From assembly GCA_049521895.1 (NCBI GenBank), contig JBEKOJ010000001.1, positions 34,717 to 98,716 of the forward strand: a DNA stretch of 64,000 nucleotides. Direction: 5' to 3'. This document shows positions 1,833-48,528 of this stretch, piece after piece. The position numbers and the translations under genes are program-made. The notes beneath the pieces are model-generated. The model made no database searches, was not told where the DNA came from, and saw only the letters and a list, made by a program, of their open reading frames with translations. The stretch is from Candidatus Saccharimonadales bacterium (lineage in GTDB: Bacteria > Patescibacteriota > Saccharimonadia > Saccharimonadales > UBA10212). The first letter of the stretch is position 1; each line of letters starts with the position of its first letter.

Positions 1833-2942
1833 GTGGACGAGCTAAAAAATCAGCTAGATAAGCTGAACAACGAAGTTAGCCAAGCCGCTGGCCGGATCGG
1901 TCTGGACGAGCTGGAATCTGAATTAAATGAGCTGCGCCAACAGATGCAAGCGCCAGATTTTTGGGCCGACAATAAAAAGGCGCAAGAAATCAGCAAGCAA
2001 GAAGCTAACATGGCTCACCGCGTAGAACCTTGGCAAAAACTACAGCGAGAAATTGGTGAGGCTGGCGAACTAATAAGCCTTAGCGATACTAGTCTGGAAA
2101 AAGAACTTGCGGCTAAACTCTCAGCTCTCAGCTCTCAGCTCTCAGCTCTAAAACGCGAGCTGCGTTTCAGTGGTCCATACGATGACCACGATGTGATTTT
2201 GGGTGTCTATGCCGGCGCCGGTGGCACCGATGCCCAGGACTGGGCACAGATGCTGCTCAGGATGTACTTACGCTGGGCCGAAGCCCAAAAACTAAAAGCC
2301 GAAATTGTCGATCAATCGGCGGGCGAGGAAGCTGGCATCAAAAGTGCTACCGTTAAACTCTCCGGCGGCAGCTTTTTATATGGCAAACTGGTCGGCGAGC
2401 ACGGCGTGCACCGCTTGGTACGCCTCAGTCCGTTTAATGCCGATAACTTGCGCCAGACTAGCTTTGCCAAAGTTGAAATTTTACCTTTGATTGACAGGCC
2501 CGATGAGGTGCAGCTTGACGAAAAAGATCTCAAAATCGATGTTTTCCGGTCCGGCGGCCATGGCGGCCAATCGGTTAATACTACCGACTCCGCAGTGCGC
2601 GTAACACATTTGCCGACGGGCATCACAGTAAGCGTCCAAAATGAGCGCTCCCAACTGCAAAACCGTGAAACCGCTCTGGGAATTTTGCGCTCGCGCCTGG
2701 CGGCGCTGCAACTGGAACAACACGTCAAAAACCTAGCGGACATTAAGGGTCCAAACCAATCGGCGGAGTGGGGCAACCAAATCCGCAGCTACGTCCTGCA
2801 TCCTTATAAACAGGTTAAAGATAACCGCACCGGCTTTGAATCCAGCGACGTCGAGAAGGTCTTAGACGGCAATCTTAATCCTCTCATCGACGCCTGCCTA
2901 GAAGCAGACTTTCGAGCTAGCTCGTCTTCACCTCGACCCTAA
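1833..2942 (+). CDS. prfB: peptide chain release factor 2; single uninterrupted frame; last ~13 codons supplied by a MITE
   Basis: SPF tripeptide (RLSPFNA) and GGQ motif (SGGHGGQSVN). 369 aa, GTG start after AAGGAG. No in-frame TGA frameshift site. Confidence 0.9.
   Translation: MDELKNQLDKLNNEVSQAAGRIGLDELESELNELRQQMQAPDFWADNKKAQEISKQEANMAHRVEPWQKLQREIGEAGELISLSDTSLEKELAAKLSALSSQLSALKRELRFSGPYDDHDVILGVYAGAGGTDAQDWAQMLLRMYLRWAEAQKLKAEIVDQSAGEEAGIKSATVKLSGGSFLYGKLVGEHGVHRLVRLSPFNADNLRQTSFAKVEILPLIDRPDEVQLDEKDLKIDVFRSGGHGGQSVNTTDSAVRVTHLPTGITVSVQNERSQLQNRETALGILRSRLAALQLEQHVKNLADIKGPNQSAEWGNQIRSYVLHPYKQVKDNRTGFESSDVEKVLDGNLNPLIDACLEADFRASSSSPRP
2118..2149 (+). repeat. heptanucleotide tandem repeat (period 7, ~4.5 units) inside prfB
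   Basis: Sequence ctctcagctctcagctctcagctctcagctct, encoding LSALSSQLSAL. Confidence 0.8.
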
Positions 2943-3051
2943 TTATTCGACGTTAAGCTATTAGTCCCGAAAAATTTTAAGTAATTGGAAGGTTTAATGA
3001 CGAGCTAGGGTTCCAAGCTTTGTCGAATAATCTCGAAAGCTCGCTTCTAGG
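2897..3051. mobile_element. MITE copy A (~155 bp), 4-bp target duplication CCTG
   Basis: TIRs are cctagaagcagactttcgag and ctcgaaagctcgcttctagg. Flanked by CCTG (2893-2896 and 3052-3055). Internal sequence is homologous to the 14801-14956 copy. Confidence 0.65.
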
Positions 3052-3102
3052 CCTGGCTCGAGCAGCCCAAACCGTAAACATTATCTGATATACTTGTAAG
3101 CG

Positions 3103-3783
3103 ATGATTTTACTCGATAGAGTAACAAAAACTTACAACCGCAGGGGTTCAGCACTAGAGCGTGTCTCACTGCATATTGAGCCTAAAGAATTCGTGATTAT
3201 TGTTGGCCAAAGCGGCGCTGGCAAAACCACGCTATTCCGCTTGCTGACACGCGAAGAAAAACCCACCAGTGGCAAAATTGTGGTGGGCGGCATAGATTAT
3301 GACAAGCTGAAGGACAAAGACGTACCAATGCTAAGGCGTAAAATTGGCGTGGTGTTTCAGGATTTTAAGCTCTTGCCCAATAAAACGGCCTATGAAAACG
3401 TAGCCTTTGCCCTAGAAATTGCCGGGCTGAGCAACCCTGAAATCAAGCACACCATTCCCAAAGTCTTAGATCTCGTAGGCCTCAAGGGTAAAGAAAAAAA
3501 CTACCCGTTAGAATTGTCCGGCGGCGAGCGCCAGCGTGTGGCTATTGCCCGGGCGGTGGTGCGCCAGCCTAAGATTCTGATAGCCGATGAGCCCACTGGT
3601 AATCTGGATCCTAAACATGCCTGGGATGTTATAAAAGTGCTGGAAAAAATTAATAAATTTGGCACTACAGTCCTCCTGACCACGCACAACCAAGACATCG
3701 TTAATGCCTTACGCCGCCGCGTGGTAACTATCAAAGATGGAAAAATCGTGTCCGACAGGGCAGTAGGACAATATAAGTCATGA
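3103..3783 (+). CDS. ftsE: cell-division ABC ATPase FtsE
   Basis: Walker A GQSGAGKTT, signature LSGGERQR, Walker B ILIADEPT. 226 aa, upstream of ftsX. Confidence 0.9.
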   Translation: MILLDRVTKTYNRRGSALERVSLHIEPKEFVIIVGQSGAGKTTLFRLLTREEKPTSGKIVVGGIDYDKLKDKDVPMLRRKIGVVFQDFKLLPNKTAYENVAFALEIAGLSNPEIKHTIPKVLDLVGLKGKEKNYPLELSGGERQRVAIARAVVRQPKILIADEPTGNLDPKHAWDVIKVLEKINKFGTTVLLTTHNQDIVNALRRRVVTIKDGKIVSDRAVGQYKS

Positions 3784-3922
3784 TTGCATCATTCCATTTA
3801 CCATTTACCATTTACCATTTACCATTAATTTCTCATTTTTCATTTCTCAATGGCCAATTGTTAAATGATAAATCATTGAAAATTGTAAATTGTAAATTGA
3901 AAACTGCTGCCGGAGGAAGCCT
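3784..3922. repeat. AT-rich intergenic module, copy 3 (CATTTAC x4.5), separating ftsE from ftsX
   Basis: Sequence ccatttaccatttaccatttaccatttaccatt ... aattgtaaattgtaaattg (inverted). GGAGGA SD precedes the ftsX GTG. Confidence 0.6.
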
Positions 3923-9217: not shown

Positions 9218-9490
9218 TTATTCGACAGTAACTTCAGTCCGTGAAGCGGACCTGCCGGAAAAGAGCTTGACTTGTCGCTTGGTGAATTTGACAGTGCCAT
9301 CTTTAGCAGCGTGAATCGTGTAATTACGCGCCAAGAAAGTGCCGGGTCCCGGACGTTTGGTCATTCCGACCTGACGCACTAAAACATCTCCAGTTTTAAC
9401 TTGGGCGCCGCCCGATACTTTTACACCCAAGCGTTGGCCTGGGCTGTCGTGCACATTCTGGCTGGTACCGCCAGCTTTAGTTTTACTCAT
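9218..9490 (-). CDS. rpmA: 50S ribosomal protein L27
   Basis: Sequence MSKTKAGGTSQNVHDSPGQRLGVKVSGG...; 90 aa. Start overlaps the upstream stop (TAATG). Confidence 0.95.
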   Translation of the reverse strand: MSKTKAGGTSQNVHDSPGQRLGVKVSGGAQVKTGDVLVRQVGMTKRPGPGTFLARNYTIHAAKDGTVKFTKRQVKLFSGRSASRTEVTVE

Positions 9491-11004
9491 TATCTCTTCG
9501 CTATTATAATTAATTGGCGTGCTACGACTTGGTCTTCGCGGTAGTACAAAAGCTCGTCTCTTGGCACGTGTTTTAGATCCAGGTAATTGTAACCCATATC
9601 TGTTAATTTATCAAGCACAGGCAGGTAGATAAACCCGCCGTCCGGTTTCTTCCAGGCCGGCACTGCCAGACACATTTTCTGACCCGGTTTCGTCTGCGCT
9701 CCTATGTTAAGCAGAAATTTTTTAGTGATAGTATTCACGTCATTAATTATTAGCTGTAGTTTTTCGCGTGGCGGTAGGTTGTTAAGCGGACGTCCCAAGT
9801 AAATCTCACTGGCAACGACGCTAAAACGCGGCCAAGTAGTATTAGTTGCATCGGCTATCTCCACCGAAACCTGAACCTCGATTTGGGGGTTTTGTTTAAC
9901 CAGCCACGCCAAGTTTTCTTTGGTGTATTCAACCATTCGCGAGTCAATATCGCTACCCAGAACGTGATAACCCATCAGCGCGGCCTCCTGCAAAATCACC
10001 CCCGTGCCGCAAAACGGATCCAGCACACGAATACGCGACGCACCGACCTGCTGGCTGGCTGAACCAGCCACTCTGTCGGTGCTTTTGGCGGATCGCTGTG
10101 TTGACAACTGCGCTGCTCGCTCACCGTATTGGTTATACGGCTTGCTTCGCTGCTCGTTGTCGCCTGGCGCTCCATCCAAACGCGCATCGTGTAAAACTTT
10201 TCTTTCGATGGGACCGACCGCTAGGTTGATGATTATTTGGGCGAGCTTGGGCGGTAGCATGCCTACGCGGGCGTCACGCCGCGGTCGGGCTTGGTCGCGG
10301 GCACCGTAGGCTTCGATATCCTGTACAAAAAAAGTTTGGGCCAAAATAGTCTCCTGGCCGTTTTTGACGAGCAGTAGCTCCCATGCACCCTTGCTGGTCA
10401 GCTTATTGTGCAGCACTTGGGCGCTGTTTAAAGCCGCCGACTTATTAGGAACTACACGCATTGGCCTGTCGCTGGCCCTTTTGATGCTTATACCTAACTT
10501 GTTGATTTCAGCGGCTGGCACCGCCAACCCATAAAAGCTCAGTCCTAGCGTAAATTTACCCGGTAGTAGACTTTCGCGTTGTCCGCCATAGGCGGGCCTA
10601 GCTTCCCGGCCACTTGGCCGAGAAGGTCGCGAAAGCTCACTACCGGGCTTACCTGGCGGCACGTGCGTCAGATGTTTAGGCACGTTATCTAGCAGGTATT
10701 TTTTAATATCCTTCCAGTCAGTGCTGGGCAGGGTAGCCAAAACCTGGGCAACCTTTATCGAACCGCCAAGTCGCTTGAAATTAATCTCGCCGGCGTCAAT
10801 ATCCAGTAACGCCGCTTGCCCCGTGGAATGCAAAGCAGATTCCACTGGGGCGCCACGGACTGGCTGCACCCCGATGGAATGGTCGCCTGCGGCGAATCCC
10901 ACGGGGTAAACGTGCTCGGCGCCGTATAGGCTTTCCAGTTCCGCCAAACCCAAAGCGGGCTGTCGTCCTAGAATGCACAAACTCTTCAGTTTAAACTCTG
11001 CCAT
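9490..11004 (-). CDS. putative RNA (guanine-N2-type, UPF0020/Trm11-like) SAM methyltransferase with low-complexity insertions
   Basis: Sequence MLPPKLAQIIINLA ... VLDPFCGTGVILQEAALMG ... GSDID. Two Pro/Ser/Arg/Gln-rich inserts. Confidence 0.55.
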   Translation of the reverse strand: MAEFKLKSLCILGRQPALGLAELESLYGAEHVYPVGFAAGDHSIGVQPVRGAPVESALHSTGQAALLDIDAGEINFKRLGGSIKVAQVLATLPSTDWKDIKKYLLDNVPKHLTHVPPGKPGSELSRPSRPSGREARPAYGGQRESLLPGKFTLGLSFYGLAVPAAEINKLGISIKRASDRPMRVVPNKSAALNSAQVLHNKLTSKGAWELLLVKNGQETILAQTFFVQDIEAYGARDQARPRRDARVGMLPPKLAQIIINLAVGPIERKVLHDARLDGAPGDNEQRSKPYNQYGERAAQLSTQRSAKSTDRVAGSASQQVGASRIRVLDPFCGTGVILQEAALMGYHVLGSDIDSRMVEYTKENLAWLVKQNPQIEVQVSVEIADATNTTWPRFSVVASEIYLGRPLNNLPPREKLQLIINDVNTITKKFLLNIGAQTKPGQKMCLAVPAWKKPDGGFIYLPVLDKLTDMGYNYLDLKHVPRDELLYYREDQVVARQLIIIAKR

Positions 11005-14800: not shown

Positions 14801-14956
14801 CCCGGTAGTAGACTTTCGAGTCAGCTCGTCGTCCCCGTAGGATTTTATTCGGCGTCTGGGCTTTATTTAGGGTACAGACTTATGTATAAAGAAGACGATA
14901 TTAGCGAGCTGGAGGTTACAAGCCATGTCGAATAATCTCGAAAGCTCACTACCGGG
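14801..14956. mobile_element. MITE copy B (~156 bp), 4-bp target duplication TATG
   Basis: TIRs are cccggtagtagactttcgag and ctcgaaagctcactaccggg. TATG is present on both flanks (14797-14800 and 14957-14960). Confidence 0.7.
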
Positions 14957-23886: not shown

Positions 23887-23956
23887 CCCGGTAGTGAGCT
23901 ATCGAGATTTAATAATGTATCCGCAAAGCGGATAGACTCGAAAGTCTACTACGGGG
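23887..23956. mobile_element. MITE copy C (70-bp internally deleted derivative), target duplication TAAA
   Basis: TIRs are cccggtagtgagctatcgag and ctcgaaagtctactacgggg. TAAA is present on both flanks. Confidence 0.65.
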
Positions 23957-48387: not shown

Positions 48388-48528
48388 AAGAGTTATAACT
48401 CTGGTCTTTATTATACATCTGTTGAGCGAAGTACCCGTAATAAAAATGGGTCAAGCGTAGTGCAACCCGAGCGATGGTTTAGATCACCCGGCGTGTAACG
48501 CACACTTTTATTACGGGTACGAGCGACT

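Follow-up and report, generated by a model that had tools for sequence, protein, structure and literature searches.

The gene for release factor 2 (RF2), prfB, very probably owes its present ending to a mobile element in the 64,000-nucleotide stretch of Candidatus Saccharimonadales bacterium DNA analysed here (contig JBEKOJ010000001.1; below, the window). Our reading is that a non-autonomous palindromic element, element A (2897..3051), hit a CCTG of prfB and replaced the tail of the encoded protein, and that the family to which the element belongs includes coding relatives with a GIY-YIG nuclease gene. As now encoded, prfB occupies positions 1833..2942 of the plus strand and, by its open reading frame (ORF) and translation, specifies a protein of 369 amino acids (aa) from a GTG start, with the SPF and GGQ motifs intact. 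A preliminary description had stated that prfB runs into copy A of a miniature inverted-repeat transposable element (MITE), which would encode the last residues of RF2. This was confirmed, since the single ORF 1833-2942 ends within 2897-3051. The label "copy A" is likewise justified because related copies are present at 10559-10647, 14801-14956 and 23887-23956.

Element A is 155 bp long and represents a long form that is homologous to copy B of the window and to elements at two other loci (L066 and L108:7041-7196). Its left terminal inverted repeat, CCTAGAAGCAGACTTTCGAG (2897..2916, plus strand), lies within the current prfB frame and encodes L-E-A-D-F-R, and the right one, CTCGAAAGCTCGCTTCTAGG, is found at 3032..3051 of the same strand. 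The two 20-nt arms are complementary at 17 of 20 positions, and no such pair occurred in 100 dinucleotide-preserving shuffles of the window. The element is flanked by two copies of CCTG (2893..2896 on the left and 3052..3055 on the right, plus strand), and its ends fit the pattern CC[C/T]NGTAGT(A/G)(G/A)(A/G)CTTTC with a conserved left/right asymmetry (left, CCTAGAAGCAGACTTTC; right, reverse-complemented, CCTAGAAGCGAGCTTTC). It folds into a hairpin of -63 kcal/mol with a z-score of -4.1. The ORF list contained no ORF of at least 40 aa on either strand of the element, and the promoter/terminator scan found neither a plus-strand promoter nor a terminator in it. Being small, free of a transposase ORF, bounded by inverted repeats and a target duplication, and represented by dispersed copies that share its ends, element A has the structure of a MITE. 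Rfam scans of the whole window, and of positions 2700-3300 at a permissive threshold, returned no RNA family for it, and the idea that it is a known ribozyme, riboswitch or small RNA is thus unsupported.

At the left junction the protein now reads ...NLNPLIDAC LEADFRASSSSPRP*, its last 15 codons entering the element. The Cys355 codon TGC is composed of TG from the host and C from element A, whose first bases (C/CTA GAA) finish this codon and add codons for Leu and Glu. After ADFRASSSSPRP, the frame is closed by a TAA 44 nt inside the element. The new C-terminal codons, from Cys355 through LEADFRASSSSPRP to the stop at 2940-2942, thus span 2895..2942 of the plus strand. Written with the element-encoded residues, the present ending is ...CLEADFRASSSSPRP, and the tryptic peptide from this tail is VLDGNLNPLIDACLEADFR. 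Beyond the element, the native 3' end persists as an untranslated relic (3056..3077, plus strand), consisting of the G of TGG and CTC GAG CAG CCC AAA CCG TAA, that is, (W)LEQPKP*. The next gene, ftsE (3103..3783, plus strand), starts with the ATG at 3103, and the spacer between the prfB stop and ftsE was 25 nt before the insertion and is 160 nt now.

Deletion of 2897-3055 (159 bp), the element plus one CCTG, gives a 361-aa protein ending ...LIDAWLEQPKP* (in longer context, ...NLNPLIDAWLEQPKP*). The restored reading had been proposed in exactly this form, with a stop codon at 3074-3076 that has to be moved to 3075-3077. The reconstructed empty-site junction is GACGCCTGGCTCGAG and the restored-tail peptide is VLDGNLNPLIDAWLEQPKP. 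The restored ending was also said to resemble that of other RF2 proteins, and the C-termini of 117 orthologs, 66-75% identical to the window RF2, indeed align with it. The position of Trp355 is occupied by Trp in 104 of them (89%), by Ser in five, Arg in three, Tyr in two, and by Cys, His and Gly in one each; Leu-Glu follows in 87 of the 117, and the tail beyond Leu-Glu measures 0-9 residues. The ortholog P0013 (73% identical, 361 aa) ends LIDAWLEAPKP (...NLNPLIDAWLEAPKP), a near-match to the reconstruction at equal length, and its contigs share with the window the gene order secA, M16 peptidase, prfB, ftsE, ftsX, CHAP. The uninterrupted site of the syntenic relative (L001-L003) reads ...ATCGACGCCTGGCTAGAGGCGCCCAAGCCGTAA, contains a single CCTG and is colinear with the reconstructed window site. 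Across the same site the DNA of the P0013 contig reads ...CTCATCGACGCCTGGCTAGAGGCGCCCAAGCCGTAA, a 26-nt spacer and then ATGATTTT, which is base-for-base colinear with the reconstruction. Since the orthologous empty site has one CCTG, the CCTG pair around element A is a true target-site duplication. Element-free relatives that encode the LEADFRASSSSPRP tail would speak against an origin of the tail in the element; no such protein was found, and the next-closest RF2 is 75% identical. The insertion in prfB arose after the split from the P0013 lineage.

The preliminary description called the C-terminus of RF2 rewritten, with a transposon-derived tail and a W-to-C change. Both the element-encoded tail and W355C stand, while the extent of the change is milder than the word suggests. 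Because the element's C/CTA GAA completes a Cys codon and then encodes Leu-Glu, the conserved W-L-E became C-L-E, the native Leu-Glu being re-encoded by the element end. The tail after Leu-Glu went from four residues (QPKP) to 12 (ADFRASSSSPRP), three beyond the longest among the 117 orthologs (9). The protein core is in order: PF03462 (PCRF) and PF00472 (RF-1) are recorded for P0001, a protein identical to the window RF2, in which SPF is found at residues 199-201 and GGQ at 244-246. In a structure search, solved RF2 structures aligned to residues 2-358 (E = 1.7e-90), and the homology ends at residue 358. In the AlphaFold model of the current protein, which has a mean confidence score (pLDDT) of 72, the last helix is preserved over 349-364, and the pLDDT falls below 50 for residues 362-369. 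The damage to RF2 is thus small: the core is untouched, and a variable tail and one fairly conserved residue are altered. The organism needs RF2, because eight of the 44 long ORFs of the 64-kb window terminate with TGA. The altered protein would be expected to be fully functional. The programmed +1 frameshift site is absent from prfB, which the ORF list gives as one uninterrupted 369-aa frame; such a site is common, is not universal and is not required for membership in RF2. As a clean natural experiment, in which an essential factor in a minimal genome tolerates the loss of Trp355 and a foreign 12-residue tail, this RF2 marks its C-terminal end as structurally permissive.

One ortholog, P0017, has a natural Cys at the Trp355 position. 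Its ending ...IDACLEKL was considered as an independent insertion at the same site, and this was rejected: the gene reads GCC TGT CTC GAA AAG CTA TAG, with a TGT codon and no element. The prfB-ftsE spacer of the same genome (L212:2605-2807) is 203 nt long versus ~26 nt. Within it are a GC-rich hairpin, CAGCCCCGACTGGTCGGGGCTG, and an ORF called at 45 aa, and a separate insertion seems to have taken place at this gene boundary.

The host of the prfB insertion is a peat-bog Saccharibacteria (TM7) lineage, and the closest named RF2s are those of Candidatus Saccharibacteria / Saccharimonadales. In an index lookup, the protein identical to the window RF2 was listed on 23 contigs. Ten loci, each from a separate Joint Genome Institute (JGI) sample, were compared and had an identical 250-bp stretch spanning element A. 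All four members of the 90% protein cluster carry the tail, including the protein of an NCBI assembly, a one-substitution variant and a fragment, and the reconstructed 361-aa protein, the empty-site allele, was not found among ~15 billion sequences. The presence of the allele in every sampled member can be traced to the untouched RF2 core, only the variable tail and one residue being changed. Conspecific contigs are 99.97-100% identical over 4-21 kb, with the exception of a ~2.3-kb stretch of L009 (97.1%), and the sampled contigs are one near-clonal lineage. The insertion was supposed to be datable by strain divergence; with conspecific contigs this close to identical, and with no empty-site allele in the protein collection, such dating is not possible.

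Three alternatives concerning the RF2 insertion were weighed. An assembly artefact at the junction draws on just the general risk of repeat misassembly in metagenomes, and its probability is negligible: ten contigs from different JGI samples are identical across both junctions, and the proteins of an NCBI genome assembly and of another JGI contig carry the same tail. It is also quite improbable that this prfB allele is impaired or non-functional, with UGA termination covered by a second prfB copy or by other means. The conservation of Trp355 in 89% of orthologs and a 12-aa tail after Leu-Glu that exceeds those of all 117 orthologs (maximum 9) would fit such an allele, but the ORF and all catalytic motifs are intact, UGA is in use as a stop codon, and this is the sole allele seen in any sample. 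Moreover, natural orthologs have Cys, Ser, Tyr, Arg, His or Gly in place of the Trp, and their tails vary in length. The sequence covered here is 64 kb, and a second prfB copy may lie elsewhere in the genome. Even less credit is due to the idea that the element tail is never made, the native C-terminus being recovered either at the RNA level, through removal of the hairpin from the message, or during translation, through ribosomal bypassing. In favour of this idea, GCCTG is present at both junctions, a bypass would run from GCC 2892-2894 to GCC 3051-3053, the insert plus one duplication copy comprises 159 nt and is a multiple of three, the hairpin is strong (-63 kcal/mol, z-score -4.1), and the native 3' codons with their stop are still intact. 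To our knowledge, however, the only well-known case of ribosomal bypassing is T4 gene 60, where the gap is ~50 nt as compared to 159 nt here. No stop codon directly follows the would-be take-off codon, no known ribozyme or intron family was matched, and a recent insertion, or constraint on the sequence upstream of ftsE, accounts for the intact relic just as well.

Four copies of the family (A-D) are present in the window and more in other Saccharibacteria genomes. Copy B (14801..14956, 156 bp) is of the long form and is flanked by the target duplication TATG, the right TATG giving the downstream ORF its ATG; this ORF encodes a membrane protein (MKRTESG...), and the position at the start codon is that of the GIY-YIG coding elements described below. 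Copy C (23887..23956, 70 bp, target duplication TAAA) is intergenic and in the opposite orientation. Copy D (10559..10647, 89 bp, flanks TTTA/CTTA) contributes 31 in-frame codons (PGSELSRPSRPSGREARPAYGGQRESLLPG) to the gene of a UPF0020-type methyltransferase of 504 aa (9490-11004, minus strand), and the ortholog in the relative L014 is without exactly these 31 residues. The same methyltransferase has further segments that are not in the ortholog and consist of palindromic DNA, at 10818-10906 (~26 aa) and 10040-10082 (~24 aa). The segment at ~10818-10906 has arms CCCCGTGGGATTC/GCATTCCACGGGG and family-like ends, CCCCGTGG...CCACGGGG; no clear target duplication was seen around it, and it was left unclassified.

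The wider family was surveyed by scanning ~185,000 reference genomes with the 15-base pattern CCCGGTAGTNNNCTTTCG, counting only paired, inverted matches, as many single chance matches in unrelated phyla were encountered and disregarded. Paired inverted ends 70-160 bp apart were confined to contigs of Saccharibacteria/Patescibacteria, except for one 6.3-kb contig labelled Candidatus Binatia (L097), which agrees with window copy C in its flanks. Duplications of 4-5 bp (TAAG, CCGCG, CAAG, TAAA, CTTA, TATAA) flank the family elements. Pairing of the outer stem is kept through changes on both arms, as in CCTAGAAGC/GCTTCTAGG versus CCCGGTAGT/ACTACCGGG, and again in CGAG/CTCG versus CGCG/CGCG and CGTG/CACG. 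These paired changes were measured in the outer stem; inside it, the short copies cannot be aligned with one another and seem to form one or two hairpins that vary in sequence. At L030:3177-3260, a short family element abuts the 5' end of a putative tRNA gene (GGGCCCATAGCTCAGCCGGTTAGAGC...), as read from the sequence. A 90-bp intergenic palindrome at window positions 48431-48520, with 18-nt arms that are 94% complementary (GTACCCGTAATAAAAATG, CACTTTTATTACGGGTAC), could belong, as another member, to the CCCGTA-ended elements that accompany distant GIY-YIG relatives.

Coding elements with the same ends were found at L083:7334-7645 (312 bp) and L108:1317-1629 (313 bp). In both, one frame is open from end to end and encodes a GIY-YIG domain (PF01541; E = 1e-17 and 2.5e-14, respectively). 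A metagenome scan with these proteins gave 520 relatives, of which the best 80 loci were examined. Inverted repeats, with CC..GTAG.. as the left end and ..CTAC..GG as the right end, clearly delimit the element in 53 of the 80, and the elements measure 289-318 bp; loci with elements of this kind are L132-L138, L083, L108 and ~45 further ones. The flanking direct repeats mostly contain ATG; the right flank starts with TATG in 21 loci, with ATGA in 10 and with ATGG in nine, and most elements are followed by an ATG with which a long host ORF begins. Elements of the 313-bp type are preceded by the ATG at which the nuclease starts (M-PSSELS...), so that the left inverted repeat is coding, and the TAG stop lies within the right inverted repeat, followed by a G and by the TATG of the host gene start. 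More than 1000 database proteins match, annotated just as "GIY-YIG nuclease family protein" or "putative endonuclease"; most of the best matches are 104 aa long, start with MPSSELS and end with QQKVYY, both encoded by the inverted repeats. A model of the 104-aa protein (pLDDT 77) has as its closest solved folds the UPF0213 protein BH0048 and Slx1, a nuclease whose substrate is branched DNA (PMC6902002).

Short and coding elements have ~17-nt ends in common, arm for arm, with the left/right asymmetry AGAC versus GAGC, and nothing else is shared; they co-occur in the same assembled genomes (L066 with L108; L083). Because element A has neither the 104-aa GIY-YIG ORF nor internal similarity to the coding elements, it can only be a non-autonomous relative of them. 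It is also not located on a start codon, as its CCTG lies near the 3' end of prfB, whereas copy B, with its TATG flanks, is. The term MITE therefore holds as a structural description, but the coding partners that were found encode a GIY-YIG nuclease and not a classical transposase.

Two arrangements of the coding elements deserve mention. In three genomes (L083:7647-8000, L137:431-1633 and L138:1814-3202) a GIY-YIG element lies ahead of one and the same host protein, which is 74-83% identical between them, has the N-terminus ...LDIGTEFIKALVGRVVG... and, from its sequence, is taken to be FtsA-like. The element may have persisted there by vertical descent over a long time, or one site may have been hit repeatedly. 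At L083:7244-7645, an 86-bp short element and the 312-bp GIY-YIG element are only 4 bp apart (CCAA), with TATG on both outer sides, and one ORF from the left ATG reads through both. The pair may be a composite or nested element.

In summary, element A inserted into the CCTG at prfB codons 354-355 (GCC TGG) with duplication of the four bases. Translation now passes from the host TG into the element and stops at the element's TAA, with the native codons remaining as an untranslated relic. The family of element A is spread across Saccharibacteria, its coding relatives being the 289-318-bp elements with one 104-aa GIY-YIG ORF. These sit on host start codons in such a way that the flanking repeat, mostly TATG, supplies the nuclease with its ATG and restores that of the host. 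Since the coding elements have no start codon of their own, they would persist at start codons. The nuclease may mobilise the short copies in trans, and a structure-recognising nuclease acting on hairpin or cruciform ends would fit the preserved pairing of the arms.

Taken further, the elements might constitute a new class of mobile element, with a ~300-bp autonomous form that uses a GIY-YIG nuclease as its transposase and inserts at the TATG of host start codons with a 4-bp duplication, and with element A as a non-autonomous member. We put this forward tentatively, as somewhat short of an even chance. In such a class, an Slx1/UPF0213-like ORF whose first and last codons are its own inverted repeats would take over the host's ATG and ribosome-binding site. 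As the nuclease stop falls in the right end, immediately ahead of the duplicated ATG, re-initiation could keep the host gene translated. Its nuclease could cut cruciform or hairpin ends, and short derivatives would litter Saccharibacteria genes, including essential ones. If the nuclease does move the elements, they would be among the smallest autonomous transposons known, and their enzyme belongs to a family not known to transpose DNA. Bacterial GIY-YIG elements that have inverted repeats and target duplications, or elements that lie on start codons, were not described in the open-access papers and preprints searched.

The ends of the elements allow for a more conventional explanation, according to which element A is an ordinary MITE derived from, and moved by, a classical DDE insertion sequence, for instance of the IS1380 or IS5 type, and the GIY-YIG ORF is a passenger or a coincidence. 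Inverted repeats with a 4-5-bp target duplication are the usual DDE signature. IS1380-family ends begin with CC and give 4-5-bp duplications, the left end of ISEcp1 being CCTAGATTCTACGT. We nevertheless regard this explanation as unlikely, as no 1-2-kb element with these ends was present among the Saccharibacteria loci fetched, and the GIY-YIG ORF is the sole gene between the ends in dozens of divergent elements. The nuclease ORF, moreover, extends over the whole element, since even the ends are coding sequence. A search of all fetched loci for a DDE partner, or for any autonomous element of 1-3 kb bounded by these ends, yielded nothing but chance pairs in unrelated phyla.

Several points weigh against our own reading that a member of a nuclease-linked family hit prfB. 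The outermost nine bases of element A, CCTAGAAGC, are unlike the common CCCGGTAGT and CCTAGTAGT types; relative to the CCTAGTAGT type two positions differ, and these are altered on both arms. The ties between short copies and nuclease elements consist only of shared ends and co-occurrence, no GIY-YIG copy lies within the 64-kb window, and we know of no GIY-YIG enzyme that catalyses transposition with target duplications. As to RF2, no conspecific strain without the element was found, for which reason the empty site had to be inferred from a relative with a 73% identical RF2, and in a near-clonal sample the uniform carriage of the allele is weak evidence of long-term tolerance.

Repeats of other kinds were noticed around prfB. 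Within its domain 1, at window positions 2118-2149, there is a perfect 7-nt tandem repeat, CTCTCAG, in 4.6 copies, encoding KLSALSSQLSAL; a change in copy number would shift the frame, and every cluster member seen has the same number of copies. The spacers at ~260-400 (secA/M16 peptidase), 1686-1832 (M16 peptidase/prfB) and 3784-3922 (ftsE/ftsX) are AT-rich and 140-150 nt long, whereas the same three gene pairs are just 1-5 nt apart in the relative L014. Repeats resembling CATTTAC(C)ATT recur in these spacers, four perfect copies being arranged in tandem at 3795-3826, and a 48-aa ORF was called by JGI in the ftsE-ftsX spacer of the window.

The alteration of a coding gene by a palindromic MITE-like element is a known kind of event, with precedents in Rickettsia palindromic elements (RPEs), ERIC, BOX and Correia. 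RPEs insert into protein-coding genes, often in frame, and add tolerated peptide segments (Ogata et al. 2000, as summarised in PMC10969869); bacterial MITEs can also create fusions with host ORFs (PMC10969869). The likeness between RPEs and the present elements, which is one of behaviour only, lies in short palindromic repeats (~100-150 bp) that occur within genes of a reduced genome, and copy D, a 31-aa in-frame insertion, behaves exactly like an RPE. The RF2 insertion does not, as it is not read through and replaces the C-terminus. The present elements further differ from RPEs in the host phylum, in their clear 17-20-nt inverted repeats and 4-5-bp target duplications, and in sharing their ends with GIY-YIG elements; for RPEs, no mobilising enzyme is known to us. 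The RF2 case also shows that core genes of Saccharibacteria are not exempt from remodelling by small mobile elements, which parallels the effect of palindromic elements in Rickettsia.

Correia/NEMIS, ERIC, RUP and BOX resemble the present elements in being small and transposase-free, with inverted repeats, target duplications and many copies. Classical MITEs trace to DDE insertion sequences or to no known partner, whereas here only ~300-bp GIY-YIG coding partners were found. REP/REPIN sequences are likewise hairpin palindromes with a GTAG/CTAC motif, in which arm complementarity is kept through two-sided changes. REPINs are extragenic, lack a target duplication and depend on a Y1 (HUH) transposase (RAYT), while the present elements have 4-5-bp target duplications and copies within genes. 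On the side of the enzyme, the 104-aa protein of the coding elements is similar to stand-alone GIY-YIG nucleases such as UPF0213/YhbQ, Slx1 and I-TevI in its GIY-YIG domain. Unlike the coding elements, these nucleases have not been described with inverted repeats and target duplications or on host start codons. Homing endonucleases do not insert at many unrelated sites; they spread through repair, which carries them to the corresponding locus of another copy of the genome. Set against these systems, the hit on the C-terminus of RF2 is a new instance and not a new principle, and it is the partner elements that are the novel part.

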